Virus record (IMG/VR): IMGVR_UViG_3300037295_000263
Location: 64,001 to 128,000 of that record
From: a virus
Lineage: Duplodnaviria > Caudoviricetes
DNA length: 64,000 nucleotides
Direction: 5' to 3' (one strand)
Shown here: one piece after another, positions 13,020 through 40,091 of the stretch
Position numbering within the stretch: position 1 is the stretch's first letter
How the letters are laid out: every line of letters starts with the position of its first letter
Made by a program: the position numbers and the translations under genes
Notes under the pieces: model-generated
Seen by the model: only the letters and a program-made list of their open reading frames with translations
The model's database searches: none
What the model was told of the DNA's origin: nothing

Positions 13020-14373
13020 AAATATTAAAAAAATAATTCCTATTATGAATGAAATAAGTCCGACTTTTTGTTTGGCTAAATGGCATCATACTACAATCTA
13101 TTTGCAAACAGGAGAAACTCATAGTTGTTATCATCCTGCTCCGCATAGTATTCCTTTAAACGAAATTATCGATAATCCTTCAGCATTGCATAATACATCG
13201 CAGAAAAAACTTGAACGTAAAGCAATGATAGACGGGAAAAAACCTAGCGGATGTCAATATTGCTGGAATATAGAAGCACTAGGCGAAGACTTATTAAGTG
13301 ATAGAAAAGAAAAAAATAGCACAATTTACACACCTGAGAGATTTAAACAAGTTAAAGAAGATTTATTAGGAAATGTTAATCCACAGTATATTGAAATATC
13401 ATTTGGCAACGAATGTAATTTTAAATGCGGGTATTGTCATCCTAAACATAGCAGTAGCTATTATAAAGAAATTAAAGATTTCGGCCCATATTCTACTGTT
13501 AAGAATCACAGAAATGACATTGACTGGTTTAAGATATACGAAGAGGAAACAAACCCGTATGTAGACGCATGGTGGAAATGGTGGCCTGAAGTTCGAGAAA
13601 CTTTAGACATTTTAAGAATTACTGGCGGAGAGCCATTGTTGCAAAAAAGTACATGGAAACTTTTAGAAGATTTAGATGCAAATCCTCAACCAAATTTAGA
13701 AATAAACATCAACAGCAATTTCGGAGTAAAGCCGATATTAATAGAGAGATTAGTAGAAAAAGTTAATGCATTATTATCTCAAGGAAAAATAAAACATTTT
13801 ATGGTTTTTACTAGTATTGATACTTGGGGACCACAAGCCGAGTATATCAGAACAGGACTAGATATTAAATTATGGGAAAAAAATCTTAATACATTTTTAA
13901 CAAGAACTAATTTACCTGTAACTTTTATGATGACATTTAATATTTTGACTGTGACTAATTTTAAATCTTTGTTAGAAAAAGTGTTAGAATGGAGAAACAA
14001 ATACAATACCGATGATCAATCCGTTTGGCAGCGTGTAAGATTTGATACTCCTTATTTAAAAGAGCCGTTACAATACGATATGAACATATTACCAAAAGAA
14101 CAATTTGTTCCGTACATGTATAATAGTTTGGATTTTATAAAAGAAAATTTAGATAATACTGATAAATTTAAATTTAGCAATATTGAATATGATAAATTTT
14201 TTAGAGTATTAAAATATATGGAAACTGAAAATTATCCACAAAACAAGCTAATGGAAGGAAGAAAAGATTTTTATAATTGGTTCACTGAATATGATCGTCG
14301 TCGGGGCACCGATTTTAAAAAAACATTTCCTGAATTAGTTGAGTTTTTTACTAGCTGTGGAAGTATTAGATGA
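13012..14373 (+). CDS. Radical SAM protein with N-terminal Twitch/SPASM-like Cys module
   Basis: CNFKCGYC (CxxxCxxC), ITGGEPL; N-terminal CLAKW...HSCYHP...CQYCW. Confidence 0.85.
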   Translation: MNENIKKIIPIMNEISPTFCLAKWHHTTIYLQTGETHSCYHPAPHSIPLNEIIDNPSALHNTSQKKLERKAMIDGKKPSGCQYCWNIEALGEDLLSDRKEKNSTIYTPERFKQVKEDLLGNVNPQYIEISFGNECNFKCGYCHPKHSSSYYKEIKDFGPYSTVKNHRNDIDWFKIYEEETNPYVDAWWKWWPEVRETLDILRITGGEPLLQKSTWKLLEDLDANPQPNLEININSNFGVKPILIERLVEKVNALLSQGKIKHFMVFTSIDTWGPQAEYIRTGLDIKLWEKNLNTFLTRTNLPVTFMMTFNILTVTNFKSLLEKVLEWRNKYNTDDQSVWQRVRFDTPYLKEPLQYDMNILPKEQFVPYMYNSLDFIKENLDNTDKFKFSNIEYDKFFRVLKYMETENYPQNKLMEGRKDFYNWFTEYDRRRGTDFKKTFPELVEFFTSCGSIR

Positions 14374-15707
14374 CTCCTGCGCAAAAGAAAAAACTTACAA
14401 CATTTACCAAAGAGCTAAATGATGTTAGTCCTAGCTTTTGTGTGGCAAAATGGAAACAAGTTACGTTACACTTGCAAACAGGAAAAACACATAGTTGTCA
14501 TCATCCAACACCTCATAAAATACCTATTGATGAAATAAAAATAGATGTGAGTGCGTTGCATAATACTTCTTATAAAAAAGAACAGCGTAAAAAAATGCTC
14601 ATCGGCGAACGTCCAGAGGAGTGTTCACATTGCTGGAAAGTAGAAGATAATACATCTGCTTACAGCGACAGGATCACTAAAAGCATCGATAAGTGGGCTA
14701 GTCCGTTTATACCGCATATAGCTAACAGCAGCTACAGCGATAACATAAACCCTTCGTATTTAGAAGTAAGTTTTTCCAATACATGTAATTTCAAATGCAG
14801 TTATTGCAGTCCAGAAATTTCAAGTAAATGGTTTGAAGAAATCAAACAACACGGGCCTTATCCGACAAGTACTAAATTTAATAATATAGAATGGCTGGAA
14901 CAAACGGATAGTATTCCTATATTAGAAAAAAATAATAACCCATATATCGATGCCTTTTGGAAATGGTGGCCGAGTTTATATCCTACTCTGCAGGTAATGC
15001 GTATTACTGGCGGGGAACCGTTACTAACTAAGCATACATTTAAAGTGTTGGATTATATTAAACAAGTCCCTAGCAGTCAGTTAGAACTAAATGTAAATTC
15101 TAATTTATGTGTTCCTGAGAAACAGTATAATTTATTTTTAAATAAAATAACAGAAATTGTCGAGTTGGGTTCTGTTAAAGAATTTAAGCTGTATACTAGT
15201 TGCGAGTCAACATCCAGTCGTGCAGAATATATACGGCATGGTTTAAATTATGACCAATGGCTTGCTAATTGTTATAAATTTTTAGACACTGTTCCTAACG
15301 GCAAACTTACTATAATGTCTACGTATAATGCACTAAATGTATCTAGCTTTGCGCTATTCTTGAAGGATGTAGTTTCTTTAAAAGAATATAAGAAAAATGC
15401 AGTTAGCTTAGATATTTCACTATTACGGTGGCCTGCACATTTATCTATTGATATTTTAACTGACGATTTTATAAGTATAGTAGCAAGTCACAAATTGTTT
15501 ATTAAGAATAATCCATTATTTGAAATTCATGAAATAAATAGGATGGAAAGAATTTTCATTAATAATACAAATTCTACTATTAATAGACAAGACTTTTTAT
15601 TATTTGTAGATGAGCATGATCGTCGGCGCGGTACTGATTTTAAAAAAACATTCCCCGAAATGGAGAAATTTTTAAATTTGTGCAACGTTGACGTAAATAC
15701 AATATGA
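14370..15707 (+). CDS. Radical SAM protein, tandem paralog
   Basis: CNFKCSYC, ITGGEPL, CVAKW...HSCHHP...CSHCW; shared C-terminal DRRRGTDFKKTFPE. Confidence 0.85.
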   Translation: MTPAQKKKLTTFTKELNDVSPSFCVAKWKQVTLHLQTGKTHSCHHPTPHKIPIDEIKIDVSALHNTSYKKEQRKKMLIGERPEECSHCWKVEDNTSAYSDRITKSIDKWASPFIPHIANSSYSDNINPSYLEVSFSNTCNFKCSYCSPEISSKWFEEIKQHGPYPTSTKFNNIEWLEQTDSIPILEKNNNPYIDAFWKWWPSLYPTLQVMRITGGEPLLTKHTFKVLDYIKQVPSSQLELNVNSNLCVPEKQYNLFLNKITEIVELGSVKEFKLYTSCESTSSRAEYIRHGLNYDQWLANCYKFLDTVPNGKLTIMSTYNALNVSSFALFLKDVVSLKEYKKNAVSLDISLLRWPAHLSIDILTDDFISIVASHKLFIKNNPLFEIHEINRMERIFINNTNSTINRQDFLLFVDEHDRRRGTDFKKTFPEMEKFLNLCNVDVNTI

Positions 15708-16702
15708 AAATATTTATAACAGGCGTAGCTGGATTTTTAGGAAGTCATTTAGCAGATAGGATGATCAGTCTGGAACATTCGGTATCGGGCAATGACAATT
15801 TTCTTGGAGGTTACGTAGATAACATCAATCCGTTAGTTGATTTCCACGAAGTAGATTGCTGCGATTATGATAGCATGGTATGCTTAATGAAAGATGTAGA
15901 TGTTGTCATACATGCAGCAGCTACTGCACACGAAGGTCTAAGTGTGTTTAGTCCTAATTTTATAACTAAAAATGTGTATCAAGCAAGCATTTCTACGATA
16001 TCAGCAGCAATTGCAAACAATGTAAAGAGATTTGTATTTTGTTCTAGCATGGCAAGATACGGTAATCAAGAGTTTCCTTTTGTAGAAACACAAAATACCT
16101 CACCAGTAGATCCTTACGGAATTGCTAAAGTAGCTGTCGAACAAACGTTAATAATGTTGTCTAATATTCATGGCATGGAATGGAATATTGCAGTCCCTCA
16201 TAATATCATCGGACCACGGCAACGATATGACGATCCGTTTCGCAACGTTGTGAGTATTATGATTAATAGAAATTTACAAGGAAAAGAAGCAATTGTGTAT
16301 GGCGACGGTTTTCAGAAACGATGTTTTTCATATATAGATGATTGTGTATTTTGTTTGGAAAAATTAGCATTAGGCAATATTGTTGGAGAAATAATCAACA
16401 TAGGGCCGGACGAAGAGTCGGTGACTATTAACGAATTAGTCGATTTAATTGCTAAGGAATGTAATTTTCATAGTACTCCTACACATTTCTTAAATAGACC
16501 TGCTGAAGTAAAAAACGCAATTTGTTCTTCTAAAAAAGCAAGAGATTACTTAGGATACCGAACTACTACTAGTCTTGCAGAATCGATAACAAAAACAGCA
16601 GAGTGGATCAGACACCGCGGAACAAAACAAACTGATTATTCTTTTCCTTTAGAGATAGTAAATGATAAAACCCCAATTCCATGGAAAGACAGGTTAATGT
16701 AA
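15704..16702 (+). CDS. NAD-dependent NDP-sugar epimerase/dehydratase (extended SDR)
   Basis: TGVAGFLGSH, CSSMARYG, YGIAK (YxxxK), HNIIGP. Confidence 0.9.
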   Translation: MKIFITGVAGFLGSHLADRMISLEHSVSGNDNFLGGYVDNINPLVDFHEVDCCDYDSMVCLMKDVDVVIHAAATAHEGLSVFSPNFITKNVYQASISTISAAIANNVKRFVFCSSMARYGNQEFPFVETQNTSPVDPYGIAKVAVEQTLIMLSNIHGMEWNIAVPHNIIGPRQRYDDPFRNVVSIMINRNLQGKEAIVYGDGFQKRCFSYIDDCVFCLEKLALGNIVGEIINIGPDEESVTINELVDLIAKECNFHSTPTHFLNRPAEVKNAICSSKKARDYLGYRTTTSLAESITKTAEWIRHRGTKQTDYSFPLEIVNDKTPIPWKDRLM

Positions 16703-27412: not shown

Positions 27413-28273
27413 TTACGTACCCCATTCGTTCTTGAACAAAGGAACTTGAAGCCTATCACTGTATCGCAAGCCGTGTTTCATTGCCAAGTCCGCCACTTTA
27501 CGATTGTTCAATGCGTAAACACTTTCCACACCACCTACTGGCATTAGATAAATGTGTCCTCTAAACCCAGCTTCACGATACTCTTTAACAGCAAGTCTAG
27601 CATCTGCAAAGTCCTGATCTGTAGCGATTACAAATTTTAAATAAGCAGTACCGACTCGTTCATATTCGCAAACCACATCAGGTCTAATTGCATCTACCCA
27701 TGCTTCGCCTGAACAGGGTAATTTAGCACTCACCGAAAATGTAATTTCACGTTGATGTTTTGGTAATCCTTTCCATACTGTTAAGTAATGTTTAAATTCT
27801 TCAGTTAACTTTTGAGTACCATTTGTTTCAAATGTAATTTCTTTTAAGCCATACATTTTTTCATGATCCAGTAGATCAGGAAATGCACGTTGCCATCCTA
27901 ACAACGGCTCTCCGCCTGTAATAACCAAGTGTTCATCACGCCATTCTTTAAACGGAAGTATTTCGGCAATCCGATCTGCAATAGCATCACTTGTTAGCAT
28001 AGGACTCAACTCTTTAAAATCAGGATGCCAAGATGCGTAACTATCGCAGCCCGTGCTAACAAGCGGCAAGTCTTCGTACTTAAAAAATGTCTCAATCTTT
28101 TTATGTGTGTGTGCTACTTCATCTGCTTCTGTGCTAAGTTCACCACGCGGCATACCGAATCCCGAGCAGGTAAAATTACACCCGAATGTACGCAGAAATA
28201 CACTAGGGACGCCCATATAACGTCCTTCGCCTTGTATACTGTAGAACAGCTCTGCTATTTTAATTTTGCTCAT
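27413..28273 (-). CDS. queE: 7-carboxy-7-deazaguanine synthase QueE (radical SAM), atypical Cys spacing
   Basis: ELFYSIQGEGRYMGVPSVFLRTFGCNFTC...GCDS, ITGGEP, ETNGT, SVSAK, RLQVPLF. Confidence 0.85.
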   Translation of the reverse strand: MSKIKIAELFYSIQGEGRYMGVPSVFLRTFGCNFTCSGFGMPRGELSTEADEVAHTHKKIETFFKYEDLPLVSTGCDSYASWHPDFKELSPMLTSDAIADRIAEILPFKEWRDEHLVITGGEPLLGWQRAFPDLLDHEKMYGLKEITFETNGTQKLTEEFKHYLTVWKGLPKHQREITFSVSAKLPCSGEAWVDAIRPDVVCEYERVGTAYLKFVIATDQDFADARLAVKEYREAGFRGHIYLMPVGGVESVYALNNRKVADLAMKHGLRYSDRLQVPLFKNEWGT

Positions 28274-28541
28274 AAATTTTTGACCATTGTTTAAGTTTTT
28301 CTTTCTTAGATGCTTTTGCTCTATCTAAGTTGCTTTGCTGAATTACCTCTTGCTCTAATAAAAGGTCAATCATTGCCAGCATGTCTCCTAGTTCTTCCTC
28401 TAAATGTTCTAGATTTGTCTTGGATTTATTTAGTTTAAAATTGTCTAATCCAAACCGCCTGCATTTACTAATTGCCTGGATAACTTCTGCACATTCTTCT
28501 TGTAGAATGTCTAAAGTTTCTTGATTAAATGTTTTATTCAT
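28260..28541 (-). CDS. MazG-like NTP pyrophosphohydrolase
   Basis: LQEECAEVIQAISK...LEEELGDMLAM acidic metal-binding pattern. Confidence 0.75.
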   Translation of the reverse strand: MNKTFNQETLDILQEECAEVIQAISKCRRFGLDNFKLNKSKTNLEHLEEELGDMLAMIDLLLEQEVIQQSNLDRAKASKKEKLKQWSKIYEQN

Positions 28542-29017
28542 AGTTTAGTGTACACGGATCTTTCAATTTGTTCAACCGAAACTCCACTTTTCCTTAAAAA
28601 TTCTATTCCTTCTTGGCTGCGATAATCATTGCTGTAGAATACACGTTTAATGCCGGATTGTGATATTAATTTAGCACAATCGATACACGGACTATGTGTT
28701 ATAAACATATCTGCATCCTGCGCACTAATTGTTGATTTAGCAATCTTGCTAATTGCATTAGATTCTGCATGCAGCACTTCCGGCTTCGTCTTTAATTCAA
28801 CAGTTCGCATCATATTAATTACTTCGCTATATACTGTTTCGAATTCGGCAATCACGTCTTCGCAGTTATTATCCCATCCACTCGGAGTACCATTATATCC
28901 GTAAGTCACTACATCGTCTTTAACAATAACTGCACCGACTTTCAGTCTTCGAGCGTAGCTAAGATCAGCTATTCTATGTGCTATATCCATATATGCCAGT
29001 ACAAATTTTTGCTTCAT
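28538..29017 (-). CDS. dCMP deaminase (ComEB/T4 cd-like)
   Basis: KVGAVIVK, GYNGTP, HAESNAI, PCIDC zinc motif. Confidence 0.9.
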   Translation of the reverse strand: MKQKFVLAYMDIAHRIADLSYARRLKVGAVIVKDDVVTYGYNGTPSGWDNNCEDVIAEFETVYSEVINMMRTVELKTKPEVLHAESNAISKIAKSTISAQDADMFITHSPCIDCAKLISQSGIKRVFYSNDYRSQEGIEFLRKSGVSVEQIERSVYTKL

Positions 29018-29238
29018 TATTTTTGATACTCTTTAGATTCTTTAGGAAGGCTATCGTGTTTTACTGTAAATTCTAAGCCCGCCATTTTGCCAATGTACGC
29101 ATTATTTTTATAAAACATGCTAACCTTGACGGTGTTGACTGCTACTTCTAATAGCTTTAATGGCTTGTAATTTAAAACATATCCGTCGACGGATTGTCCG
29201 TTATCAGTGCAATGCACTTGTACTTTTGCATCTATCAT
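29017..29238 (-). CDS. Hypothetical protein
   Basis: 73 aa; TAATG overlaps on both sides. Confidence 0.65.
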   Translation of the reverse strand: MIDAKVQVHCTDNGQSVDGYVLNYKPLKLLEVAVNTVKVSMFYKNNAYIGKMAGLEFTVKHDSLPKESKEYQK

Positions 29239-29975
29239 TAATATACTCCTTTTCCGACAGCAGATTGCTGTAGTTTAATGTTATCGAAAAACTCTTTCTT
29301 TGTAGCTGAGTCATTTTTAAATGCTCCTCTCAGAATAGTAGTTTGTGTTAATGAGCTTGTAGCCATAATTCCTCGATTTGTACAACATCCGTGTTCTGCT
29401 CCTATATGCACGCCGACATCGCTGGATCCAGTACAGCGCATAATTTCACGAGCGATATCCATAGCTAATTCTTCTTGTAGTGTTCCTCTGCGCGAACACC
29501 ATTGCGCTAGCCGAGAATATTTACTGAGACCGATCAGTGTATCGGCCGCAAGGATCCCAATGTATGCAACACCAGTTACTGGTTGATGATGGTGACTGCA
29601 TATACTTTTTAGTTCGCTACGCACTACCAACATGCCTTCATATCTGTCTATTGTATTATTAGGAAAGGCTGTTGCGTCTGGTGCTGGATCATAACGACCA
29701 GCCATAATTTCGTTAAAATACATTTTTGCCAATCGCCGTGCAGTACCTTTTGAATTAGGGTCGTTTTCGCGGTCAATTAAAAGTGCATCCAATACACCTT
29801 CGAACGCTTTTGCAGCATCATCGATTAATATTTCTTTATCTTCGGCATTAATATACTCGCTGATGTTATCTCCTGCCCAGAATCTTTTACCATCTCGCTG
29901 CATAGCCATTCGAATTGCGCCACCGAGATACGATTCTGTGTATCCGTTGTTGTCTAGATCTTTGCTGATATCCAA
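29238..29975 (-). CDS. folE: GTP cyclohydrolase I FolE
   Basis: TARRLAKMY, SICSHHHQP, GLSKYSR, QEEL, AEHGCCTNRG; TTG start after GGAG. Confidence 0.9.
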   Translation of the reverse strand: MDISKDLDNNGYTESYLGGAIRMAMQRDGKRFWAGDNISEYINAEDKEILIDDAAKAFEGVLDALLIDRENDPNSKGTARRLAKMYFNEIMAGRYDPAPDATAFPNNTIDRYEGMLVVRSELKSICSHHHQPVTGVAYIGILAADTLIGLSKYSRLAQWCSRRGTLQEELAMDIAREIMRCTGSSDVGVHIGAEHGCCTNRGIMATSSLTQTTILRGAFKNDSATKKEFFDNIKLQQSAVGKGVY

Positions 29976-30012
29976 TTATTATTCTCCGAGTTTATTTTGG
30001 GTCTAACTTTAT

Positions 30013-30041
30013 AGTATATAACTTTATTTCGGGGAGGTCAA
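30013..30041 (-). promoter_or_regulatory. Sigma70-type promoter TTGACC-N17-TATACT
   Basis: Upstream of the folE-dCMP deaminase-mazG-queE run. Confidence 0.7.
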
Positions 30042-30824
30042 GTATAGTAACATATTTTTCTTTATTGCAGACTCCAATACGCTCAACTCAACTCCTGCAC
30101 TATTTGCATACTGACAAAATGCTGAAGTATCTTTCGGAAAACATGCTCCTGCAAATCCAAAGTTTCCATCTGGGCCAGGAACTGACATGTGCGAAGTTCC
30201 AATTCTGTCGTCGTGTGAAATCATGAATTTTATTTTTTCGTAATCTAAATTTGCAGATTTCGCTAGACTATATAATTCATTCATGAAAACCACTTTAGTT
30301 GCAAGGAAAGAGTTTACTGCATATTTAGAAAATGCAGCTTCTCCGATCGAGCATTGTAAAACTGATGTCACATGTGGTAATGATTCAAGAATAACTTCTT
30401 TTGCTTCAGTAACATACGCACTAATGTTTCCTCCGATAATAGAAAAATCCTGATGCATATAATCCCCAACTGCGTTAGCTGATGTCAGGAACTCAGGACA
30501 ATGCACAAGGTTTGGGTATGCTAAACTTAATTCTTCGTATTTTGAAGGCGGAGCAGTAGTTTTGCTAATAATCACTCCTTTGTATTCTTTTAAATTCTCT
30601 AAAACACTTTCTAGTATTGTTGTATTGCATGTTAAATCGATGTTCATTGGGCTAGGCACACAAACAAAAATTGCCCGACAATCCATTAAATCTTTGTAGG
30701 TGCCTGTTGATTTTTTTGGATCAATATCAACAATAACAGTGCTGGTAACTTTAAATTCGAATGACATTTTAACAGCATTTCCTACAAAGCCCTTGCCAAT
30801 AATACCAATTTTTTCAGTTATCAT
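30024..30824 (-). CDS. UDP-glucose/GDP-mannose dehydrogenase family protein lacking the C-terminal domain
   Basis: GKGFVG, FVCVPSP, CPEFL, KYAVNSFLA, GFAGACFPKD; ends shortly after the catalytic motif. Confidence 0.8.
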   Translation of the reverse strand: MITEKIGIIGKGFVGNAVKMSFEFKVTSTVIVDIDPKKSTGTYKDLMDCRAIFVCVPSPMNIDLTCNTTILESVLENLKEYKGVIISKTTAPPSKYEELSLAYPNLVHCPEFLTSANAVGDYMHQDFSIIGGNISAYVTEAKEVILESLPHVTSVLQCSIGEAAFSKYAVNSFLATKVVFMNELYSLAKSANLDYEKIKFMISHDDRIGTSHMSVPGPDGNFGFAGACFPKDTSAFCQYANSAGVELSVLESAIKKNMLLYLTSPK

Positions 30825-31926
30825 TTTTTAATTTTTCCAACATTGTGTTACAGCTAAAAAACTTTTCAGATAACACGATTACTTGTTTATTTAGGCCAAT
30901 TAAGTATGCATCGTAATTGTTCATGTATTGCGTAATTTTATTACATAATTCTTGTCTATGTAATAAGTAGGAATCAAACGATTCAGTCCATTCGCTAGGA
31001 TACTTAAATTCTTCTAGTGCCATTTCGCTATAGCTTAATCTATCAGGCACTAACGGAATAGCCCCTACCAATGCACCTTCATACCAACTTATGCCCAATG
31101 TTTCTTGAAGATTAGCACTGAATACCATTTTTGCTTCGCCTAACAAGTTATGATATTCATTTTTTGTCAATTGCTGATCTTGGCATACTACAAACTCATA
31201 TTGCGGTAACTGTTCTTTTAAGTCACGAAATATTTCAACTTGTTTTTCAGGAGCAATTCTGTGCGGGAATAAAATGAGATCACGCTTGGGCATATTCTTA
31301 TACATTGCCAAAGTGTCTGGCATATATTCCATAGGCCACCCTGTACGAACAATCTTTTCATATACACCACTTAGTACATCATTTAAATCTTCCTCGTACC
31401 AAGGGTTTTCACTAGTTAGTCCATCATTCAATCTTTCTTTAAAAAACAACTTAATGTGAAACTGGGTGGCAAAATAGTTATGATCAAATGCGTGGTAGAA
31501 GCTTTTTTCAGCATGACTTACCCAAGGCTTATTACCCACAATGCGTCCTAGGAAATCTTGAGGATCATATGCTCCTGCATGCCAAAGTCCGTGTGTAGTT
31601 ACAGGAATATCCAACAACTCGCTCATGTACTTTAAGTTGATAATTCCTGGATGCCACGCATCGCTAAAAATAAAATGGTCGCCGGCTGAAATGCGTCCAT
31701 TGCAAAATAGTCTGCCAATTTGCTCAACTTGATTAGCCTTGTATATATTTGTGCCGCCAAAGTTGAGAAAAGCTCCCGGAGTTGTAGCATTAGGTATATC
31801 GGTAGGTCCAGATATGACATGAACTTTGTGTCCTGTTTGTGATAAAAGTTTAGGAAGATGTTCTTTCCACTCGCCAGTATAACGAGTGGAAACATCTTCC
31901 AAATCAACGAGAAACAAATTTCTCAT
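30814..31926 (-). CDS. GT-B glycosyltransferase (GT4-like)
   Basis: LFPHRIAPEK and ETLGISWYE (E-x7-E). Start moved to ATG 31926 (MRNLFLVD); the longer extension lies inside the upstream gene. Confidence 0.75.
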   Translation of the reverse strand: MRNLFLVDLEDVSTRYTGEWKEHLPKLLSQTGHKVHVISGPTDIPNATTPGAFLNFGGTNIYKANQVEQIGRLFCNGRISAGDHFIFSDAWHPGIINLKYMSELLDIPVTTHGLWHAGAYDPQDFLGRIVGNKPWVSHAEKSFYHAFDHNYFATQFHIKLFFKERLNDGLTSENPWYEEDLNDVLSGVYEKIVRTGWPMEYMPDTLAMYKNMPKRDLILFPHRIAPEKQVEIFRDLKEQLPQYEFVVCQDQQLTKNEYHNLLGEAKMVFSANLQETLGISWYEGALVGAIPLVPDRLSYSEMALEEFKYPSEWTESFDSYLLHRQELCNKITQYMNNYDAYLIGLNKQVIVLSEKFFSCNTMLEKLKNDN

Positions 31927-32149
31927 TTTTATTCCAATTTCCTCTTGGCTTTCCGTTCCACGGACGCTTCGGACGCTTGCTGTATTGGTAAGCTTTCCAA
32001 TTTTCGTTGTCTCGTTTGTAAAGGTCTGCAGGATCAAAGTTTCGCAATTCGAAACGACAAAAATCTTGATATGCTTCAAGATCTTGAAAGATCTTAACAA
32101 TATTTGGGTTATTGTCAAAATAAGCATAACCTTTGTAGCTTTTAATCAT
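31904..32149 (-). CDS. Hypothetical protein
   Basis: 81 aa; AAGGA RBS; basic C-terminal tail. Confidence 0.65.
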   Translation of the reverse strand: MIKSYKGYAYFDNNPNIVKIFQDLEAYQDFCRFELRNFDPADLYKRDNENWKAYQYSKRPKRPWNGKPRGNWNKNEKFVSR

Positions 32150-32176
32150 TTTTAATTATTCCTTTAAATATTTTTT

Positions 32177-32536
32177 TTAAATTGGGTTGTATTCAACAAT
32201 GCCATCCGACTCGCCGTCTTCTGACACTACTATCTCGTAATACCTATCTGTACCGTAGCTAGGCATTAAGTGATTCTCTAAAATATCAGTTGCAATCATC
32301 TCACAACTTTTATGATTCATTTTACTATCTTTAATGTAATTTTGCAACGCCCATTTGACCAAAAAGAATTCTAATTCTCGGTCTAAATGCGAAACTGAAA
32401 TCTTTACTTCAACTTTAAACATGTGTCTGTGTTCAAATTCTAAAAATTTAATTCTACTGTCGATTTTACCAGCTTCAGGATAATAATGATATCCTTCAAA
32501 TTGTGTACGAACTTTTATATATGTGTCTGTATTCAT
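32177..32536 (-). CDS. T-fold QueD/PTPS-like protein (DpdL-like signature)
   Basis: FEGYH...LEFEHRHMF...SCEMIA...VSEDGE; lacks the CxxxHGH of canonical QueD. Confidence 0.7.
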   Translation of the reverse strand: MNTDTYIKVRTQFEGYHYYPEAGKIDSRIKFLEFEHRHMFKVEVKISVSHLDRELEFFLVKWALQNYIKDSKMNHKSCEMIATDILENHLMPSYGTDRYYEIVVSEDGESDGIVEYNPI

Positions 32537-32616
32537 ACTGATATTCTCACAAGCAATATTTTACTTAAAGTGGTTTCCATATTTTTCCTATTATTGTTAT
32601 TGGAATTGTATTTCAT
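32533..32616 (-). CDS. Mini-ORF (27 aa) bridging two genes
   Basis: MKYNSNNNNRKNMETTLSKILLVRISV; ATGA overlaps at both ends. Confidence 0.35.
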   Translation of the reverse strand: MKYNSNNNNRKNMETTLSKILLVRISV

Positions 32617-33134
32617 TTAGTAGCAGTGTCGTCTGTGTACTGGTCCCAGAATGTAAATTTATCTTTGTTCATTAAACTTTGCAGATGATGAGTCCATACT
32701 CCCGGATTAGTACTTCCCCAGGTTCGATCATCTAGTTTGAGTGTAGCGTTATAATTAAGTTCAGAAATATACGGTAACTTAACACTGATCATAGGAACAA
32801 ATTTATCGTGCTCGTTGTATCCACTTTCGAGTACTCCGTCTATATGTTTAACATCGAAGTCTAAACTGACCCAGAATTGTTTATTTAAACACCCGATAAT
32901 AATCTCATTCCATGCTTTGTATTCTTCAAACGAATTAGATTTAGGATTAAAACTTTGGCTAGTACCAAAGTAAATATGTTTAATATCTCCAGCATTTTCT
33001 GCTTGCTGCAGGATTTCATTTAACGGCGGGGTACCTACTACAAACAAAGTTTTCATACCGTAGCAAATAGTATGCTCTACTTCATACCCTGTAAAATAAA
33101 TAATATCCTGTCTTTCTTCTGTATTTAATCCCAT
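32613..33134 (-). CDS. Hypothetical protein in the deazaguanine cluster
   Basis: 173 aa, coupled to the MDR gene; no motif recognised. Confidence 0.7.
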   Translation of the reverse strand: MGLNTEERQDIIYFTGYEVEHTICYGMKTLFVVGTPPLNEILQQAENAGDIKHIYFGTSQSFNPKSNSFEEYKAWNEIIIGCLNKQFWVSLDFDVKHIDGVLESGYNEHDKFVPMISVKLPYISELNYNATLKLDDRTWGSTNPGVWTHHLQSLMNKDKFTFWDQYTDDTATK

Positions 33135-34021
33135 TTAATATATCCTCTGTTATAATTTGTTGGACGATTTTTTCCATCTGCAAATGCCTGTTGCCATTCT
33201 GTATTACGATTATAACATTTTGTCCAGAAAGAATCGACGATTATTTTTTTTGATTCTACCATATCTCGAGCCATTACCATTGCAGTATAAAATGTAAGTG
33301 TCCGTGGACTCGGATGAATAGTAGTACACGCTTTCCATAATTGAGCTTGCGCTTCTTTTTTGGAAACTGCTTTACCCACAGCGTCGATTATTAATGCTCC
33401 GTTGCATAATTCAATTACTGTGCCCAATTCATACTTTCCACTTAGATCTATAACTACATCGTAGCTGCTGGCAGTAGTAGTTACAAGAGTATCTTGCCAC
33501 AACTCTCGATTACTACTGCCTATTACATCTATCTCAAAATCAAGATTGCATGTTTTTATTGTATTATATGCAACCCAAGCAAGAAATCCACTGCCAATTA
33601 TTAAAAGTTTTTTATTATCACCCTCTAATAATTCTAAATTTTTTCTTGCTTGGAGAATAATATTAACTCCACATGCAACTGGTTCCAGTATATATCGAGG
33701 ATGTGCCTGCGGAATAGTTACGTATTCTTGATAGCGGACTTTATACTGATCAGCGTAAGCAGGTTCACCCCGAGTAGCAACATAATCTCCGATTTTAACA
33801 TCGGTTACATCGGCGCCTATTTCAAATACTTGACCAATACCTTCGTGTCCTTGCATGTGCGAAGGTAGCAGACCAAATTCTCCGTTCATCATATCGATGT
33901 CACTTCGACATACACCTGTCATTATTGCATTAACTTTAATTTCGTTTGCGCCTAATGGTTCATCGTAGAATGTAGTTTCGAAGAAATGTCCTTCACCGAT
34001 AGTTTGTAAAAGTCTTATCAT
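33125..34021 (-). CDS. Zn-dependent MDR-family (sugar/polyol) dehydrogenase
   Basis: GVCRSD, GHEGIG, EPVAC (C/H/E ligands), IGSGFL; no four-Cys structural Zn lobe. Confidence 0.75.
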   Translation of the reverse strand: MIRLLQTIGEGHFFETTFYDEPLGANEIKVNAIMTGVCRSDIDMMNGEFGLLPSHMQGHEGIGQVFEIGADVTDVKIGDYVATRGEPAYADQYKVRYQEYVTIPQAHPRYILEPVACGVNIILQARKNLELLEGDNKKLLIIGSGFLAWVAYNTIKTCNLDFEIDVIGSSNRELWQDTLVTTTASSYDVVIDLSGKYELGTVIELCNGALIIDAVGKAVSKKEAQAQLWKACTTIHPSPRTLTFYTAMVMARDMVESKKIIVDSFWTKCYNRNTEWQQAFADGKNRPTNYNRGYIKWD

Positions 34022-34911
34022 AAATTCTCAATTTGTTGATGTATCCATATATCTTGGGAAAGTTGCTCTTCCCAAAACTTATTATTATTTAGATTATTAA
34101 TAGCAGTTGATACCATAGTCTTGTAGGCTGATTCAGGACACAAGCCTAGCATATAAGACGATTCGGAAGTATCTGTAAAAAACGTAATGCTGCAGTTGTC
34201 ACGATTTAAATTAGTTTTCCAATTAGCACTAATATTCCATTCTTTATTATTGTTGAATTGTATATAACTATAATCATCTACATCATACGTTCCGTTTGAA
34301 TTAACAGTGCCATAATCAGTACTAAAAATGTCCGATAGATTGTAGTGTTGTTTCGAGTCAGATTTAACAGGTGCTACTTTTGAGTAATCTGCTAATATAC
34401 AATAATAACTAAGCATGTGAGGAATAAGATCCCTGCTTACTCCTCCATATGCCAATGCTTTCGTAGTAAACCAACTTCCAGGATAAGGAATCCTGTTAGA
34501 ATTATTCCATTGGATACTTATTTTATTACTACGTTCGCATTGAGATCGAAACAACTCAATTTCTTCTCTGTATTGATTATTCTTAATCATCATAAATCGA
34601 GTCTTTGGAAAATCCTTAACTAGCTGCGCCCATGCATTAGAATCTTTTACTCCTGGTTTTTCGATTAATACAATTTTACACTTATCTGCAATATTCCTTG
34701 CAATTGCTTCATGTGTAAAATTAGGAGTACAAATTACAGCAATATCATATTGCTTGGTTACTTCTTGGATATTGCCGTAAGTTGCATTTTTTTCAACATC
34801 AGTATCAACAGTATCTACATTGTACTCTAGTTCTAAAAATACATTTTTGTATAACTGTCCTATACCTAGACCTACTATTAAACTATTCAGTTTATTATCT
34901 GCTGATATCAT
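34018..34911 (-). CDS. Gfo/Idh/MocA family oxidoreductase
   Basis: VGLGIG, ICTPNFTH, LIEKP, GGVSRDLIPHML. Confidence 0.8.
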   Translation of the reverse strand: MISADNKLNSLIVGLGIGQLYKNVFLELEYNVDTVDTDVEKNATYGNIQEVTKQYDIAVICTPNFTHEAIARNIADKCKIVLIEKPGVKDSNAWAQLVKDFPKTRFMMIKNNQYREEIELFRSQCERSNKISIQWNNSNRIPYPGSWFTTKALAYGGVSRDLIPHMLSYYCILADYSKVAPVKSDSKQHYNLSDIFSTDYGTVNSNGTYDVDDYSYIQFNNNKEWNISANWKTNLNRDNCSITFFTDTSESSYMLGLCPESAYKTMVSTAINNLNNNKFWEEQLSQDIWIHQQIENL

Positions 34912-36611
34912 TTAATTTCATTTTCCAACTGATCAAGTTTAAGTTTTTCTTCTTCAGAAAATTCCCCGTCGTCATGTAATGTTGATGTGTCGTCGGATAC
35001 TTCCTTAAATAATTTAAAAAAATTATTACTAGAATTAACTGTCTTTTTACCTACCGCTCCTCGAGTTCCAGGTATAGCTTGCCAGAATTTATCATAATAA
35101 TCGATAATAGCAATGGCAGATTCCCTATCTTTTGCAGCAAAAATTTCATTTACTATGTCTTTAAAGTAGGTCCTGTTAAATTTCTCATCTACTAACATTG
35201 CAGGACATAACCCGGCATCGTACTGGCGATTAGCTTCTTGCACAGCACTAATATGCATCCATACATTATGGCCCATCATAATAGCATACGTGAAACTGTC
35301 CCAGCTAGTTTTGTTTACTTTACCCATCCTGTTTACGTTACCCGGTGCATAAACACATATTTCGTTCATCTTAACACCGTCTATAACTGGGCTATTTGTA
35401 AAGTTTTTAAAATGTCCATCTTGCACTAAGACGTCTCTGAATAAACGGGTATCGGCTGCGTATTTTTTGTCGTCAATACTAGGCAACATTCTGTAGATCC
35501 ACTTTTTCCGGTCTGCAATTTCTGTTTGGACATAGATTTGTCCATTTGCTGTTGCAAGAAACGGTGAGGCGCAATCAAAAGATATGGTAAAGTTTTCATT
35601 GTGATGTTTCCTTATAGCACGTTGTATATCGGTTAATAATAAAGCCCATTCTAGTTTACTAGTTCCTAGAAAGTGCATCCAGTCTTGCTGGCCTTTTTCT
35701 AGCAGACCATCGAATTTTAAAGCAACCAGTCTTCGTAATACCAAGTCTACGTCGCACATATTTTGTCCGCCCATCGCCCAACCATTAAAAGCTCGATCAC
35801 CGTAAATTTTAGGATCACAAAAATCTTTCATTTTATTATACCAGTCGTCTGCTTGACCATGATGTTCACCTTGCAGAACATTTAAAAATTTACAAGCACC
35901 AGTACGATTCTTGATAAAATATTCATTGTTATATTTGGTGGCCATTACTGCTTGATCATAATCTTTGACTCCGCTATTTTTGGCGCCGATAGGACTGCGC
36001 CCCACCCATGCTGGGATATCAAGTACCATACCATAATCCATTAATGCATCCATCCAAGTTAACACTTGTTCTCGCTTTTTTTGAGCAGCATCTAATTTTG
36101 CTTGATATACTTTGACGTGGTCAATTTTGGAATATTTTATAGCTCTTTTTTTGTCCGTTTTAGGATTACCAGTAACAGGATCTATTATAGGAACTAACTC
36201 GATTCCTTTAGCAACGGCATCTGCCATTAATGCAGCAACTTCGGGACCGGTAGGGTCCTTCCATTCCCCTTCCCATACTCCTTTGCCGATCTGGAATCCG
36301 CCCGAGTCGCCTAATACCCAACTGTTTGTACGGTCTCGATTTCTAAACATAGATTCTCTGTCGTCATTTTTATTAAGATCCAAATTTGCATGTCCTGCAG
36401 AATACAAGCAATGATCGAAATTAAACAGCCCGTTTACTGGATCTAAAAAATTAAGACCTTCGACATCCGTTACAAAATTTTGAGGAATTCTGCTTGGTTG
36501 TACATACGGGTATCTATGTCTTTGATATCCAATAAACGATGCATAGAATCCTGATGTAGCAGGAAGAAAGTATGCATAGTCGTTTTGAGTTGCTGTTAAA
36601 TTTTTATTCAT
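34908..36611 (-). CDS. dpdA: TGT-fold deazaguanine DNA transglycosylase (DpdA-like)
   Basis: LGDSGGFQ, LDIP, LNVLQG, GWAMGG, MHFLG, SFDCASP motifs of the TGT/DpdA family; clustered with folE and queE. Confidence 0.7.
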   Translation of the reverse strand: MNKNLTATQNDYAYFLPATSGFYASFIGYQRHRYPYVQPSRIPQNFVTDVEGLNFLDPVNGLFNFDHCLYSAGHANLDLNKNDDRESMFRNRDRTNSWVLGDSGGFQIGKGVWEGEWKDPTGPEVAALMADAVAKGIELVPIIDPVTGNPKTDKKRAIKYSKIDHVKVYQAKLDAAQKKREQVLTWMDALMDYGMVLDIPAWVGRSPIGAKNSGVKDYDQAVMATKYNNEYFIKNRTGACKFLNVLQGEHHGQADDWYNKMKDFCDPKIYGDRAFNGWAMGGQNMCDVDLVLRRLVALKFDGLLEKGQQDWMHFLGTSKLEWALLLTDIQRAIRKHHNENFTISFDCASPFLATANGQIYVQTEIADRKKWIYRMLPSIDDKKYAADTRLFRDVLVQDGHFKNFTNSPVIDGVKMNEICVYAPGNVNRMGKVNKTSWDSFTYAIMMGHNVWMHISAVQEANRQYDAGLCPAMLVDEKFNRTYFKDIVNEIFAAKDRESAIAIIDYYDKFWQAIPGTRGAVGKKTVNSSNNFFKLFKEVSDDTSTLHDDGEFSEEEKLKLDQLENEIK

Positions 36612-37345
36612 TATTTACTCTGCGCTGGAAGTATGTAGTTGTACTCTGCTAATCCGCTATCGACAGCAATCATCATAACACCAGCGTCTGAAATTTTTAC
36701 ATTCTTATTTCCGTCTAGATTGAGAATGCTCATAACAATACCAACAGGCCAAGATAATGATTGTTTTAAATTACCAGTAATGCCTGATTGAAAAGTAAAG
36801 CTGCCTGCGTGTGTACTAGCATCTCCAAACAAGAATACTAAGTTACCATTTTCTGTTTTAACGTGAAAAACATTTTCTTCAGTGTGTGCAGATGCTTGCA
36901 GTTTTAATCTGCCAATGCTAGACATCGATGGTTCAAATTCGATATTCCACGTAGCACCTTTGAATTTAACTGTTTTTAGTTTTTCGTTAATAATATCGTG
37001 AACCATGAATCTATAATCGTTTTGAAAATCTCCAGCCGCATTTTCAAAATGCAAACTAGTAGGCATATCAACGCCATTGCGATTAGAAATAACAACCTCG
37101 ATTTTTGCATTATCTTTATATTCAGGATTCTTTAAATGTAAACTTAACTTATCTAAGTTAGGCATACCGAAAACTGAATCTGCAAATTGTGCTACATCTT
37201 TTTTTGTTTTACATACCAAAATAACACTACGGTCATCTGACATCGATTCGATGTGTGTGCCTGTACTATCGCCAGTAATCTTTACTAATGGGATAACACC
37301 TAAGCTATAAGTGTGTGCTACAATGTCCATTAAAATATCTTGCAT
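36611..37345 (-). CDS. Putative sliding clamp (T4 gp45-like)
   Basis: 244 aa, two-domain alpha/beta size, directly downstream of the polymerase. Start at ATG 37345 after AAGGAG. Confidence 0.6.
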   Translation of the reverse strand: MQDILMDIVAHTYSLGVIPLVKITGDSTGTHIESMSDDRSVILVCKTKKDVAQFADSVFGMPNLDKLSLHLKNPEYKDNAKIEVVISNRNGVDMPTSLHFENAAGDFQNDYRFMVHDIINEKLKTVKFKGATWNIEFEPSMSSIGRLKLQASAHTEENVFHVKTENGNLVFLFGDASTHAGSFTFQSGITGNLKQSLSWPVGIVMSILNLDGNKNVKISDAGVMMIAVDSGLAEYNYILPAQSK

Positions 37346-37367: not shown

Positions 37368-37396
37368 ATTGTATTTAGGTTTGAGTTGAAACTCAA
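37368..37396 (-). promoter_or_regulatory. Sigma70-type promoter TTGAGT-N17-TACAAT
   Basis: Upstream of the clamp-dpdA run; overlaps a small inverted repeat. Confidence 0.55.
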
Positions 37397-37421: not shown

Positions 37422-40091
37422 TTATTCAAAAGAAAATAAGTTTACAAAATTGTTGTCGCTTCTTGTAGATTTAATATCCCATTCGAGAACACCGATTAAG
37501 TTTTCTAATTTCTCATCAATAACAGCAGTTTCCATTTCCGCGTCATTAAATGGCAGATCTTTGAACCACTGCGGTAATCTTAATTCGTCGACAGGATACG
37601 CAACACTTGTATGACCTAATGGATTACTTTTTAATTTACAAACAATGACCTTTGCACCGTCTGTAATGTTTATACTATATTTGTCATCCATCATGCGTTT
37701 AAGAGTGTTCCAGTTGATACTAGCTCTAACATGCCCTGGCATATTTGCTTTACCTGCGGTTTTCTCTTTAGCTTGATACAGCGTAATATTATTAGCACGT
37801 TTTGGGCTACCCTTTTCCCATCCGGGCCTTAGTTTAAATTTAGTCCGGAATTCACAAATATGTGCTAGTACTTGTTCTTTTTCAACACCGTTAAGAACCA
37901 TAGTTAGTACTTCATTTAAAAAGTCTTGAATTACAACTGGAGTATCTGACCTTTTAAGATCTAGCCCTAGTGCTTTAATCTTGCCAGGCAATCCATTTAC
38001 ATCTGCTCGTTTTCCTTCCTTATCGTAATAAAGAACTGCATACCTTTTCTTTGTAATAAACAACCCTTTAGATGCAACTAATTCTCTGCCTGCCCGGATA
38101 ACTTCTCCTCTGGATTTAGGACAATGAAATGCATCTTGCATAAATTTAGGAAATGTACTATTCACTTCCTCACCGATAGTATCATACAGTTCAACAATCG
38201 ATTCTTTATTCCATGATAATTTCCCTAAATCGATTTCTTTCTTTAATGTAGGATACGCTGAAAAATAACAACTATCAGTATCTCCATAAATAATCGATTT
38301 TCCAGTATGACTAAATTCACCAGTAATAATCTCGTTAACTTTCCCGGCCATGTGTCGTGCAATTGCTCTGCCAGTTAGAGTAGTTGACTGTCCAATCCGC
38401 TTGTCGAAAAATCTACATCCTGGATTCAGAATTGCACCATATAAACTGTTTAAGTTAATTTTCTTTACTAATTGCCGTTTATCCCAATATTCTTCTTCGA
38501 TTTTATTACCAGCAGCAATTGCATCCTTTAGCTTACTTTGCATTTCTTTACGTTCAGCGTACCATCGTTTTAACAGTCCGGGAATAATTCCTTCCGACTC
38601 GTAGGTAAAGATTGTGCCGTTGGCACTTAACGTCCACGGCTGGTTGCTGTCAAAAATTAAGTCGTGTATTTGTGCAGCCGATAATGTATCGCTTCCGCCG
38701 TTTTCCCAATCTATTTGAATATCTCTTCCGGCTTCTCTGCTCATTACTGCGCTATATTCTAAACTACCAAATATACCTTCCCATGCTGCCGCGAATGATT
38801 TTCCTTTTGCTATCTGTGAATCGATAAAGTCATTAGTGCCATCTTGACGTAACTGTCCTACGATAGTTTCAGGACCCATGTTAAGTGCTCGAATAGCACT
38901 AGGATACAGTGAATTAATATCTAACGATCCAATCCATTCGTGTATGCCTTTTTTAGGATATGCAACATACGCACCTGCTGCTTGATTAGTTTCATTGGGA
39001 TCTCTGTGTTTACGATTAGGAACTATCATTCCTCTTTTATGTGCTTCATTGATGATAGCTTGTTCGGTAACAGCTACTGCTCCCATGGTAGTTTGTAACA
39101 ACACTGTACATTCGTGTGCCAACGTATTAGCGAGATCTAGAAATTTTAATTTTCTATCTAAACTATCTAACAACATAGTATCTTGTCTGTTGTATTCGAT
39201 AAATGTTTTAAAGTCGTTATTATATAATTGATCCAGCGATCCTTCATATTGTGTCTTAGTTTCTCCTAGCTCATATTCTGCAATAGAATTCAAACTGTAG
39301 CTATGACGTTCTTCATACGTATATTTGCGATACAACTCTAAACTATCTAAGTGAACACGTCCTACTAAATCGTAAGTACTAGCAGTCTTTCCGTATTTTT
39401 CATACTCTCTCTTTTTTGGATATTGGCCCCACAAGCAAAATCGTTTAGTATCTTCTTTGCTAAGGACTTTGGTAACTCTATTAACAGTATAAGGAATATC
39501 AAAGCCTTCACTATTCCACCCACTTAACACATCAGCATCTTGTATTAAATCTAAAAACGAATCTAACATTTCCGATTCACTTTTAAATAAAATAGTGTTT
39601 GGGAAATCTTTTACTTGGTGCGTAGCCTCTTCCATAGACAATGTTTTTGGCGGTATTGCTAAGCATACTAAAGTATCGAGCCATTGTAAATGAACTGCTA
39701 TTGCAGTTATTGGCATAAATGCATCTGCAGGCGATGCATATCCTCGTTCTGGGTCAAAATCTACTTCAATGTCAAAGAACGCTACGTTAAGTTTCGGAGC
39801 ATCTTGATTTAGGTAATTATCTTCTAGACAGCGATAAACAGGGTTGATGTCGCTTTCGTGTAATTTCTTATTATTGTGTATTGCCATTTCTTTTCGGTGC
39901 TCTTTTAAGTTCCTGGAACTTACCCGACTCAATGGCTCTTTTTTTATTGATTGAAACTTTCCCTTAACATCATAGTAGTAAAATAAATGTCTAGCAGGAA
40001 ATTCTTTGTAATGCCTCTTTCCATCAGTATCTCGTTCTACAACGTTAATTGCATCTTGATCTCTATTATAAAATGCATCTACATAACTCAT
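37422..40091 (-). CDS. gp43: Family B DNA polymerase (T4 gp43-like)
   Basis: Exo FDIEV, GWNSEGFDIPY, YNRQD; Pol SLDINSLYPS, KINLNSLYG, YGDTDS, KKRY; C-terminal FVNLFSF. Confidence 0.95.
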   Translation of the reverse strand: MSYVDAFYNRDQDAINVVERDTDGKRHYKEFPARHLFYYYDVKGKFQSIKKEPLSRVSSRNLKEHRKEMAIHNNKKLHESDINPVYRCLEDNYLNQDAPKLNVAFFDIEVDFDPERGYASPADAFMPITAIAVHLQWLDTLVCLAIPPKTLSMEEATHQVKDFPNTILFKSESEMLDSFLDLIQDADVLSGWNSEGFDIPYTVNRVTKVLSKEDTKRFCLWGQYPKKREYEKYGKTASTYDLVGRVHLDSLELYRKYTYEERHSYSLNSIAEYELGETKTQYEGSLDQLYNNDFKTFIEYNRQDTMLLDSLDRKLKFLDLANTLAHECTVLLQTTMGAVAVTEQAIINEAHKRGMIVPNRKHRDPNETNQAAGAYVAYPKKGIHEWIGSLDINSLYPSAIRALNMGPETIVGQLRQDGTNDFIDSQIAKGKSFAAAWEGIFGSLEYSAVMSREAGRDIQIDWENGGSDTLSAAQIHDLIFDSNQPWTLSANGTIFTYESEGIIPGLLKRWYAERKEMQSKLKDAIAAGNKIEEEYWDKRQLVKKINLNSLYGAILNPGCRFFDKRIGQSTTLTGRAIARHMAGKVNEIITGEFSHTGKSIIYGDTDSCYFSAYPTLKKEIDLGKLSWNKESIVELYDTIGEEVNSTFPKFMQDAFHCPKSRGEVIRAGRELVASKGLFITKKRYAVLYYDKEGKRADVNGLPGKIKALGLDLKRSDTPVVIQDFLNEVLTMVLNGVEKEQVLAHICEFRTKFKLRPGWEKGSPKRANNITLYQAKEKTAGKANMPGHVRASINWNTLKRMMDDKYSINITDGAKVIVCKLKSNPLGHTSVAYPVDELRLPQWFKDLPFNDAEMETAVIDEKLENLIGVLEWDIKSTRSDNNFVNLFSFE

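Follow-up and report, generated by a model that had tools for sequence, protein, structure and literature searches.

A 64,000-nucleotide stretch of a tailed-phage genome (Duplodnaviria; Caudoviricetes; IMG/VR record IMGVR_UViG_3300037295_000263), hereafter called the window, contains a minus-strand module at positions 27,413 to 37,345 in which genes of the 7-deazaguanine pathway are interleaved with genes for a glycosyltransferase (GT) and for several sugar and redox enzymes. The window covers bases 64001-128000 of a 216.7-kb viral contig (G000), which is ~59% complete by CheckV. We propose, with middling confidence, that the module brings about a replication-linked modification of DNA guanine in a PA5oct-like giant phage, and that a GT4-like enzyme encoded in it adds a sugar to a deazaguanine. 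A glycosylated 7-deazaguanine is a plausible product, although we hold this part a shade less firmly. The new element is the GT4-like enzyme linked to DpdL, a paralogue of QueD; the lack of QueC is covered by a published route. To our knowledge, DNA glycosylation is confined to hydroxymethylated or hydroxylated pyrimidines, and the eight known phage 7-deazaguanines all carry small groups. The initial annotation of the window knew of no glycosylated deazaguanine in DNA, and no report of one was found in the literature here either. If the proposal is correct, a deazaguanine with a sugar attached would add a new class to the known DNA bases and be the first sugar-bearing purine in any DNA. It would also affect recognition of the DNA by restriction enzymes, CRISPR nucleases, DNA glycosylases and END-type sensors.

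FolE and QueE are encoded in the module, and a QueD gene lies on the same contig beyond the window (Table 1). The T-fold protein of the module, which had been taken for QueD, proved instead to be DpdL on the basis of its match to phage phiST and its HRH motif. In tblastn searches it matched CGPG_00067 of phiST (E 1e-8) and a protein of the Acidovorax phage ACP17 (E 4e-12), and its FLEFEHRHMF segment fits the LxxxHRHxF signature of DpdL, as opposed to the CxxxHGH of QueD (Cui, Hutinet et al., NAR 2023, PMC10516641). The motif is common to the homologues of phiST, ACP17, the cultured Synechococcus phage BUCT-ZZ01, phage Phosso and a distantly related locus, L083, whose DpdA-like protein is 36% identical to that of the window by phmmer and 30% by BLASTP. 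In the source genome DpdL is accompanied by a DpdA, FolE, QueD and QueE, without QueC; judged from the sequences, this is the gene set of the published dDG type (FolE, QueD, QueE, DpdL, a DpdA and no QueC).

In phiST, all G is replaced by 2'-deoxy-7-deazaguanosine (dDG) through this route, and the cluster responsible consists of FolE, QueD, QueE, a MazG-like protein, DpdL and DpdA3 (PMC10516641). The present module resembles it in FolE, QueD, QueE, a DpdL with the LxxxHRHxF motif, MazG, an enzyme of the tRNA-guanine transglycosylase (TGT) superfamily, the lack of QueC and the position beside a DNA polymerase. It differs in its transglycosylase, which has 567 aa against 259 aa in phiST and is only remotely similar. 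Further, the phiST locus has no GT4-like gene, no counterpart of a conserved 173-aa protein found here and no sugar enzymes, and phiST DNA contains dDG.

The initial annotation had also reported that QueC, QueF and Gat-QueC are missing from the window. For QueC this holds throughout the 216.7-kb contig, which gave no PF06508 match; QueF and Gat-QueC were not searched for separately. Similarly, no QueC match was obtained in a 356-kb relative (G001, 96% complete) or in the complete PA5oct genome, and the positive control, Vibrio phage 2.275.O, was recovered with E 1.7e-51. Four open reading frames (ORFs) of the contig with an SGGxDS (PP-loop) motif gave no QueC match. One of the four, a 394-aa ORF (SGGADS) near QueD that was considered as a QueC substitute, matched neither QueC in Pfam nor any PDB entry, and has no homologue in the 356-kb relative, PA5oct, ACP17, Phosso or BUCT-ZZ01. 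The published DpdL route from 7-carboxy-7-deazaguanine (CDG) to 7-deazaguanine already accounts for the lack of QueC (PMC10516641).

The 567-aa protein, proposed at the outset to be a DpdA-type transglycosylase, bears out that proposal in its TGT fold and aligned catalytic motifs. It gave no useful match in Pfam, PHROGs, NCBIfam or PDB sequences, alone or as a 56-sequence profile, and its kinship was revealed only by fold and by hhalign. All of the best 50 Foldseek matches to its AlphaFold model (mean confidence, pLDDT, 91) were TGTs (E ~4e-7), and VIA-align superposed the model on TGT with Z 20.3 and rmsd 4.1 over 294 residues. Alignment with E. coli Tgt by hhalign (probability 88.6, E 2.7e-6) brought five motifs into register: DSGGFQ, LDIP/FDEC, LQG/IQG, GWAMGG/GYAVGG and FDCASP/FDCVMP. 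This alignment indicates that both catalytic aspartates (D102 and D346) and the guanine pocket (Asp, Gln and Gly-Gly) are present; D102, S103, G105, H313, G316 and D346 are invariant among the 56 sequences. The enzyme thus has in common with Tgt, QTRT1 and ArcTGT a (beta/alpha)8 barrel, the two Asp motifs of catalysis and the residues of the guanine pocket, but it is only ~14% identical to them and has ~200 extra residues. No cysteine occurs among the invariant or nearly invariant columns of the alignment, so the zinc site of the tRNA enzymes (CxCxxC...H) is absent. Unlike Tgt, the protein is encoded between replication genes and carries a tail motif like that of the polymerase C-terminus.

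Metagenomes yielded over 7,900 homologues of the 567-aa protein, and 929 clusters at 50% identity. By hhalign the family is closer to ACP17 DpdA (probability 96.5, E 1e-9) than to phiST DpdA3 (CGPG_00065, of a subfamily that also includes enzymes of Campylobacter phages; probability 80, E 1.4e-5, over 86 columns only); the BUCT-ZZ01 protein aligned with probability 89. Homologues adjoin deazaguanine genes in PA5oct and in Vibrio phage 2.275.O. In the latter (L002:8905-16294) the DpdA-like gene is accompanied by QueF, YhhQ, QueC, a Gat-like amidohydrolase and FolE, and a 370-aa neighbour with a sub-threshold Pfam amidoligase match (E 1.8e-4) stands in place of GT and DpdL, which suggests that the 567-aa family also serves a preQ0-type route. 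From these comparisons we infer that the enzyme exchanges guanine in phage DNA for a deazaguanine base.

The tail of the enzyme may link it to replication. Residues 517-550 are predicted to be disordered (pLDDT <50) and hold the sequence SNNFFKLF (window 36611-36700), which resembles the polymerase C-terminus, NNFVNLFSFE (window 37422-37460). An xFxxLF-like motif recurs in the disordered acidic tail of ~30 of the 56 family members. This tail looks like a possible clamp-binding peptide, which would fit a DNA target. The candidate clamp is a 244-aa protein whose homologues sit between the polymerase and the DpdA-like gene in all relatives, and the Phosso homologue carries a clamp annotation; the window's protein had no PDB sequence match, and the clamp label is unverified. 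A predicted complex of this protein with tail residues 505-567 scored 0.04 and was counted neither way. As a separate observation, in five related loci the gene immediately following the DpdA-like one encodes a 400-aa flavin enzyme of the tryptophan-halogenase type (PF04820, E 4.5e-33). Because C7 of 7-deazaguanine is electron-rich, halogenation of the base is conceivable.

The 370-aa protein is a putative GT4-like glycosyltransferase of the GT-B type, as suggested by its motifs and its family. Its true start is the ATG at 31926. The EX7E motif is formed by E275 (nearly invariant), seven residues and E283 (invariant), and R223 and K228 are invariant in 13 family sequences down to 23% identity. 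In GT4 enzymes, EX7E and an Arg/Lys pair that handles the diphosphate have established roles. PF00534 (Glycos_transf_1) was matched by 6 of the 13 members (best E 5.5e-6), and the BUCT-ZZ01 member passes the Pfam cut-off in a genome search. The family profile matched Campylobacter WlaC (6eji; E 0.003), and the nearest Atlas clusters were GT1 and GT4.

The linkage of this enzyme to deazaguanine genes extends well beyond the source phage. Close relatives (clade 1) encode it wherever the locus extends far enough (63-79% identity), and homologues occur in Phosso (48%), PA5oct (41%), L083 (41%), ACP17 (35%), Xanthomonas phages X1 and BUDD, Burkholderia phage BCSR5, the cyanophage BUCT-ZZ01 (profile E 2e-74) and, in a second, marine clade, 48 loci. 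A search of 50,697 phage records gave 17 full-length GT matches, from PA5oct-like phages, Phosso, ACP17, X1, BUDD and BCSR5, and each shares its record with DpdL, no more than 3 kb away. Counting isolates and metagenomes together, GT and DpdL lie within 3 kb of each other in two large metagenomic clades and in seven or more groups of cultured phages. DpdL is found without the GT as well: no GT match came from phiST-like phages or from several further phages with DpdL. The suggestion that the GT and nucleotide-sugar enzymes are tied to deazaguanine genes was therefore upheld across many phages.

Two cultured relatives are particularly informative. The PA5oct-like Pseudomonas phages (Wroclawvirus) share the order of family B polymerase, clamp-like protein, DpdA-like protein (33% identity), GT, DpdL (31%), phosphoribosyltransferase (PRTase) and QueE, but their locus lacks the genes of the Gfo/Idh/MocA, MDR and UDP-glucose dehydrogenase (UGDH)-like enzymes found in the window. 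PA5oct DNA is resistant to restriction at sites that contain G and was sensed as G-modified (PMC12191111). ACP17 encodes QueD, FolE, a 161-aa homologue of the 173-aa protein, DpdA, GT, DpdL and QueE in one run; it differs in its shorter DpdA (424 aa) and in having no sugar-tailoring genes. ACP17 dpdL and dpdA alone gave no dDG in E. coli, and further enzymes were suggested to be needed (PMC10516641). The GT gene between ACP17 dpdA and dpdL is not discussed in that report.

The nucleotide-sugar enzymes beside the GT differ by lineage and make up three unrelated toolkits. In the source phage and clade 1 there is a short UGDH-family enzyme (258-275 aa in the clade), encoded before FolE or before the clamp-like gene; the window's protein has the NAD-binding and central domains, with the catalytic Cys in a GACFPKD motif, and aligns to residues ~75-300 of UGDH structures of 390-490 aa. 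In the marine clade, a short-chain dehydrogenase/reductase (SDR) of the epimerase/dehydratase type (PF01370, E 2.5e-55) directly follows the GT and overlaps its stop codon in 24 of 47 loci. A homologous SDR (phmmer) is encoded in the window, unlinked to the module. The third toolkit, in L083, is a complete GDP-heptose route of HddA, HddC, GmhB and GmhA (E 1e-43 to 1e-65), encoded in a single run (L083:12073-17900) with a PMI-type cupin, GT, FolE and an XPRT/HGPRT-like PRTase.

Additional enzymes accompany the GT in some lineages. Besides GT, SDR and FolE, L107:14702-19302 and 46 other marine loci (L096-L175) encode a protein of the IMPDH/GMP-reductase family (PF00478, E 8e-69), a YhhQ/Vut_1 transporter and a purine PRTase, a trio that looks like an added capacity for guanine salvage and deazapurine uptake. 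Radical SAM/SPASM genes vary in presence among the marine loci. In BUCT-ZZ01 (L089:6361-10518), FolE, a second GT (447 aa, with weak GT1 matches), a 416-aa DpdA-like protein, DpdL (63% identity with that of the window) and a homologue of the GT are encoded in a row, with QueE, a purine PRTase and QueD upstream.

The two oxidoreductases of the module show a different distribution. Gfo accounts for 39 ORFs within 80 close loci, and MDR, which has weak NCBIfam matches to alcohol and inosose dehydrogenase models, is always paired with it. The pair is confined to clade 1, about half of whose members have it; the marine clade, PA5oct, ACP17, Phosso and BUCT-ZZ01 lack it and keep GT and DpdL. With such a patchy distribution Gfo and MDR cannot supply the general acceptor of the GT, and they are dispensable accessories.

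The pathway that we propose begins with FolE, QueD and QueE, which are predicted from family assignments and the published phiST pathway to convert GTP to CDG. Since no QueC is encoded, the pathway would not continue to preQ0; instead, DpdL is predicted to convert CDG to 7-deazaguanine, as in phiST. The TGT-fold enzyme would then swap DNA guanine for the deazaguanine base, and the GT4-like enzyme would place on the deazaguanine a sugar from a nucleotide-sugar donor, acting either on DNA that already holds the base or, earlier, on the base while it is still free. We speculate that the enlarged transglycosylase and the acidic GT would suit the latter, for which huimycin provides a precedent: HuiG attaches a sugar to the 2-amino group of a 7-deazapurine that is a free base (PMC7439116). 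The short UGDH-like enzyme, Gfo and MDR may be lineage-specific enzymes that alter the sugar. In a further-reaching version, which we hold somewhat less firmly, guanine would be replaced by a glycosylated 7-deazaguanine whose sugar differs by lineage, being a heptose in L083, an epimerised or deoxy sugar in the marine loci and hexose- or hexuronate-like in the source phage. The GT4-like enzyme would add this sugar to the free base, an enlarged DpdA-type enzyme held at the fork through its polymerase-like clamp-binding tail would insert the product, and some relatives would derivatize the base further, for example by the flavin halogenase-like enzyme.

T4-type glucosylation of 5-hydroxymethylcytosine offers a precedent in which GT-B enzymes and nucleotide sugars decorate a modified DNA base, and in which the sugars differ between relatives; it differs in acting on 5-hydroxymethylpyrimidines. 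Glucosylation of 5-hydroxymethylcytosine was also considered as the task of the present GT. The 356-kb relative, ACP17 and BUCT-ZZ01 keep the GT and have no gene of the ThyA/hydroxymethylase family, and such a target is therefore unlikely.

If the proposal holds, it could explain both the G-modified DNA of PA5oct and the negative result with ACP17 dpdL and dpdA. Cultured members with tractable hosts (PA5oct, ACP17, Phosso, BUCT-ZZ01, Xanthomonas X1 and BUDD, Burkholderia BCSR5) make the question directly testable, and the family is abundant in metagenomes by the count of homologues of the 567-aa protein.

Several points weigh against a sugar on the deazaguanine. 7-Deazaguanine offers the GT no evident hydroxyl group as acceptor. 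The GT sequence of the window itself falls below every Pfam GT threshold, its assignment resting on family and motifs, and the acidity of the family (pI 5.2-6.2) does not suggest a DNA-binding enzyme. The initial annotation's UDP-sugar dehydrogenase is right as to family, but the C-terminal UDP-binding domain is absent. The same region in relatives holds unrelated accessory genes (Na/H exchanger, Bax1-I, TauE, subtilase), so adjacency is weak evidence for Gfo, MDR and the UGDH-like enzyme. CDG decarboxylation by DpdL is itself a proposal, for which heterologous tests failed (PMC10516641). Finally, the GT is not needed for dDG, since plain dDG is made in phiST with DpdL and DpdA3, from a locus that lacks a GT gene.

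Some of these points favour a simpler explanation, in which the phage makes plain dDG as phiST does, and the GT and sugar/redox enzymes glycosylate a protein, a host surface polymer or another metabolite, having come to lie nearby as accessory genes accumulated in an early region. The Gfo, MDR and UGDH-like genes indeed vary in presence and position, and the Phosso DpdA-like gene lies 170 kb from its GT/DpdL/FolE/QueE block. The GT itself behaves unlike the accessory genes: it is kept close to DpdL in seven isolate groups of unrelated hosts and in two metagenomic clades, its full-length matches all fall in DpdL genomes, and in L083 the GT and the heptose genes flank FolE, all on one strand. 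We therefore consider this explanation unlikely, if deserving of attention.

It is less probable again that the GT product is absent from DNA, with a glycosylated free base serving as an inhibitor, storage form or signal, or with the GT playing a non-catalytic or priming role for DpdL or DpdA. Precedent exists in huimycin of Kutzneria albida, where the 7-deazapurine that HuiG glycosylates is a free base (PMC7439116), and in the dapiramicins (10.64898/2026.04.15.718813); in both, a GT belongs to a FolE/QueD/QueE-type cluster. The acidic GT family and the ACP17 result in E. coli would also be in keeping with such a role. Huimycin differs, however: it is a secondary metabolite derived from preQ0, and its biosynthesis involves QueC but no transglycosylase. 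In the phages, the module that contains the GT adjoins a DNA polymerase and includes a DNA-type transglycosylase, genes for export or resistance were not recognised, and the clade-specific diversification of sugars fits an arms race over DNA recognition better than it fits a metabolite.

Completion of the pathway by a host QueC, with the phage boosting CDG, the host making preQ0 and the DNA carrying dPreQ0 or a known derivative, is very improbable. Most bacteria encode QueC. Some DpdA enzymes accept several bases (Table 2 of PMC10516641), but the combination of DpdL with a lost QueC has been published as the hallmark of the dDG route, and Vibrio phage 2.275.O, which has QueC, QueF and Gat, shows no BLAST-detectable homologue of GT or DpdL in its 19.6-kb locus. 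The route first envisaged, in which Gfo and MDR would reduce CDG or dCDG to 7-hydroxymethyl-7-deazaguanine for O-glycosylation in the manner of glucosylated 5-hydroxymethylcytosine, is scarcely credible: it would give the GT a conventional acceptor, and both genes are translationally coupled to the DpdA-like gene here, but roughly half of the close relatives lack them, as does every other lineage that keeps GT and DpdL, neither family is known for carboxylate reduction, UGDH-family enzymes oxidise alcohols to acids, and the T-fold protein is DpdL rather than QueD.

The polymerase and the genes around it mark the source phage of the module as a distant relative of the PA5oct-like jumbo phages; when the region was compared with phage records by megablast, no match was obtained. 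A search of sequencing runs found the full stretch in one run, a salt-lake metagenome, as contigs, and one aquatic run shared 6% of its words. The thirteen minus-strand ORFs listed initially are all present where they had been placed (Table 1). Overlapping stop and start codons link the clamp-like, DpdA-like, Gfo, MDR and 173-aa ORFs as described, but the T-fold gene, which had been included in that chain, is set off by a 76-nt gap. The start codon of the clamp-like gene is the ATG at 37345, preceded by an AAAGGAG site. Both sigma-70-like sites noted at 37396 and 30041 exist (9/12 and 10/12 matches), but such sites are not enriched, with 60 in the window against 50.2 +/- 7.8 in shuffled sequences.

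Table 1. Predicted genes of the module and related features; positions refer to the window unless a contig (G000) or related locus (L040) is named.
Feature	Position	Strand	Basis or remark
Family B DNA polymerase (context)	37422..40091	-	PF00136 E 3e-34, PF03104 E 5e-20; C-terminus ends in NNFxxLF-type motif
244-aa protein in sliding-clamp position	36611..37345	-	phrog_12062 (unknown function) E 1e-31
DpdA-like TGT-fold enzyme, 567 aa, large insertions, disordered acidic tail	34908..36611	-	AlphaFold 2 fold, hhalign
Gfo/Idh/MocA-type NAD(P) oxidoreductase, 297 aa (accessory)	34018..34911	-	PF01408 E 8e-8
Zn-type MDR dehydrogenase, 298 aa (accessory)	33125..34021	-	PF08240 (ADH_N) E 2e-11
Conserved 173-aa protein, no function or fold assigned	32613..33134	-	No family match
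DpdL, QueD paralogue, 119 aa, proposed CDG decarboxylase	32177..32536	-	tblastn and motif
Basic 81-aa protein, no function assigned	31904..32149	-	ORF with AAAGGAA site; overlaps GT start; pI 9.6
GT4-like (GT-B) glycosyltransferase, 370 aa (putative)	30814..31926	-	EX7E motif, family matches
Short UDP-glucose-dehydrogenase-family enzyme, 266 aa	30024..30824	-	PF00984 E 1.5e-19, PF03721 E 8e-15
GTP cyclohydrolase I (FolE)	29238..29975	-	PF01227 E 8e-38
73-aa ORF, no function assigned	29017..29238	-	ORF only
dCMP deaminase	28538..29017	-	PF00383 E 6e-22
MazG-type nucleotide pyrophosphohydrolase	28260..28541	-	PF03819 E 4e-7
QueE, CDG synthase, radical SAM	27413..28273	-	phrog_2076 E 1e-50; five NCBIfam QueE models E 1e-11 to 3e-15
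SDR NDP-sugar epimerase/dehydratase	15704..16702	+	PF01370 E 1e-40, PF16363 E 8e-36
394-aa PP-loop ORF	G000:C1:136140-137324		~8 kb past window, 1.4 kb from QueD; three further PP-loop ORFs elsewhere in the genome
QueD (PTPS/QueD-family, with Cys)	G000:138723-139136		~10.7 kb past window; PF01242 E 8e-15
Flavin halogenase-like gene	L040:9748-10950		Also in L041, L042, L060, L081

Two small proteins of the module are conserved. The 173-aa protein is kept in both metagenomic clades and beside DpdA in ACP17. It matched no family in Pfam, PHROG or NCBIfam, and Atlas gave no usable match; its AlphaFold 2 model (pLDDT 73) had no PDB match at E <= 0.001 and only one unnamed homologue in the AlphaFold database, and hhalign against neighbouring proteins in phiST, Phosso, PA5oct, BUCT-ZZ01 and L083 gave nothing. 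The 81-aa protein has homologues in 50 ORFs of relatives.

The dCMP deaminase had no match in 80 related loci and is peculiar to the source phage, where it pairs with a strong ThyA-family gene (PF00303, E 5e-107; G000:C1:143296-144132) 16 kb past the window. Elsewhere in the window, positions 13012-16702 of the plus strand hold two radical SAM genes (453 and 445 aa) followed by the SDR gene; this is a low-GC block (32-33%) of overlapping genes without assigned function.

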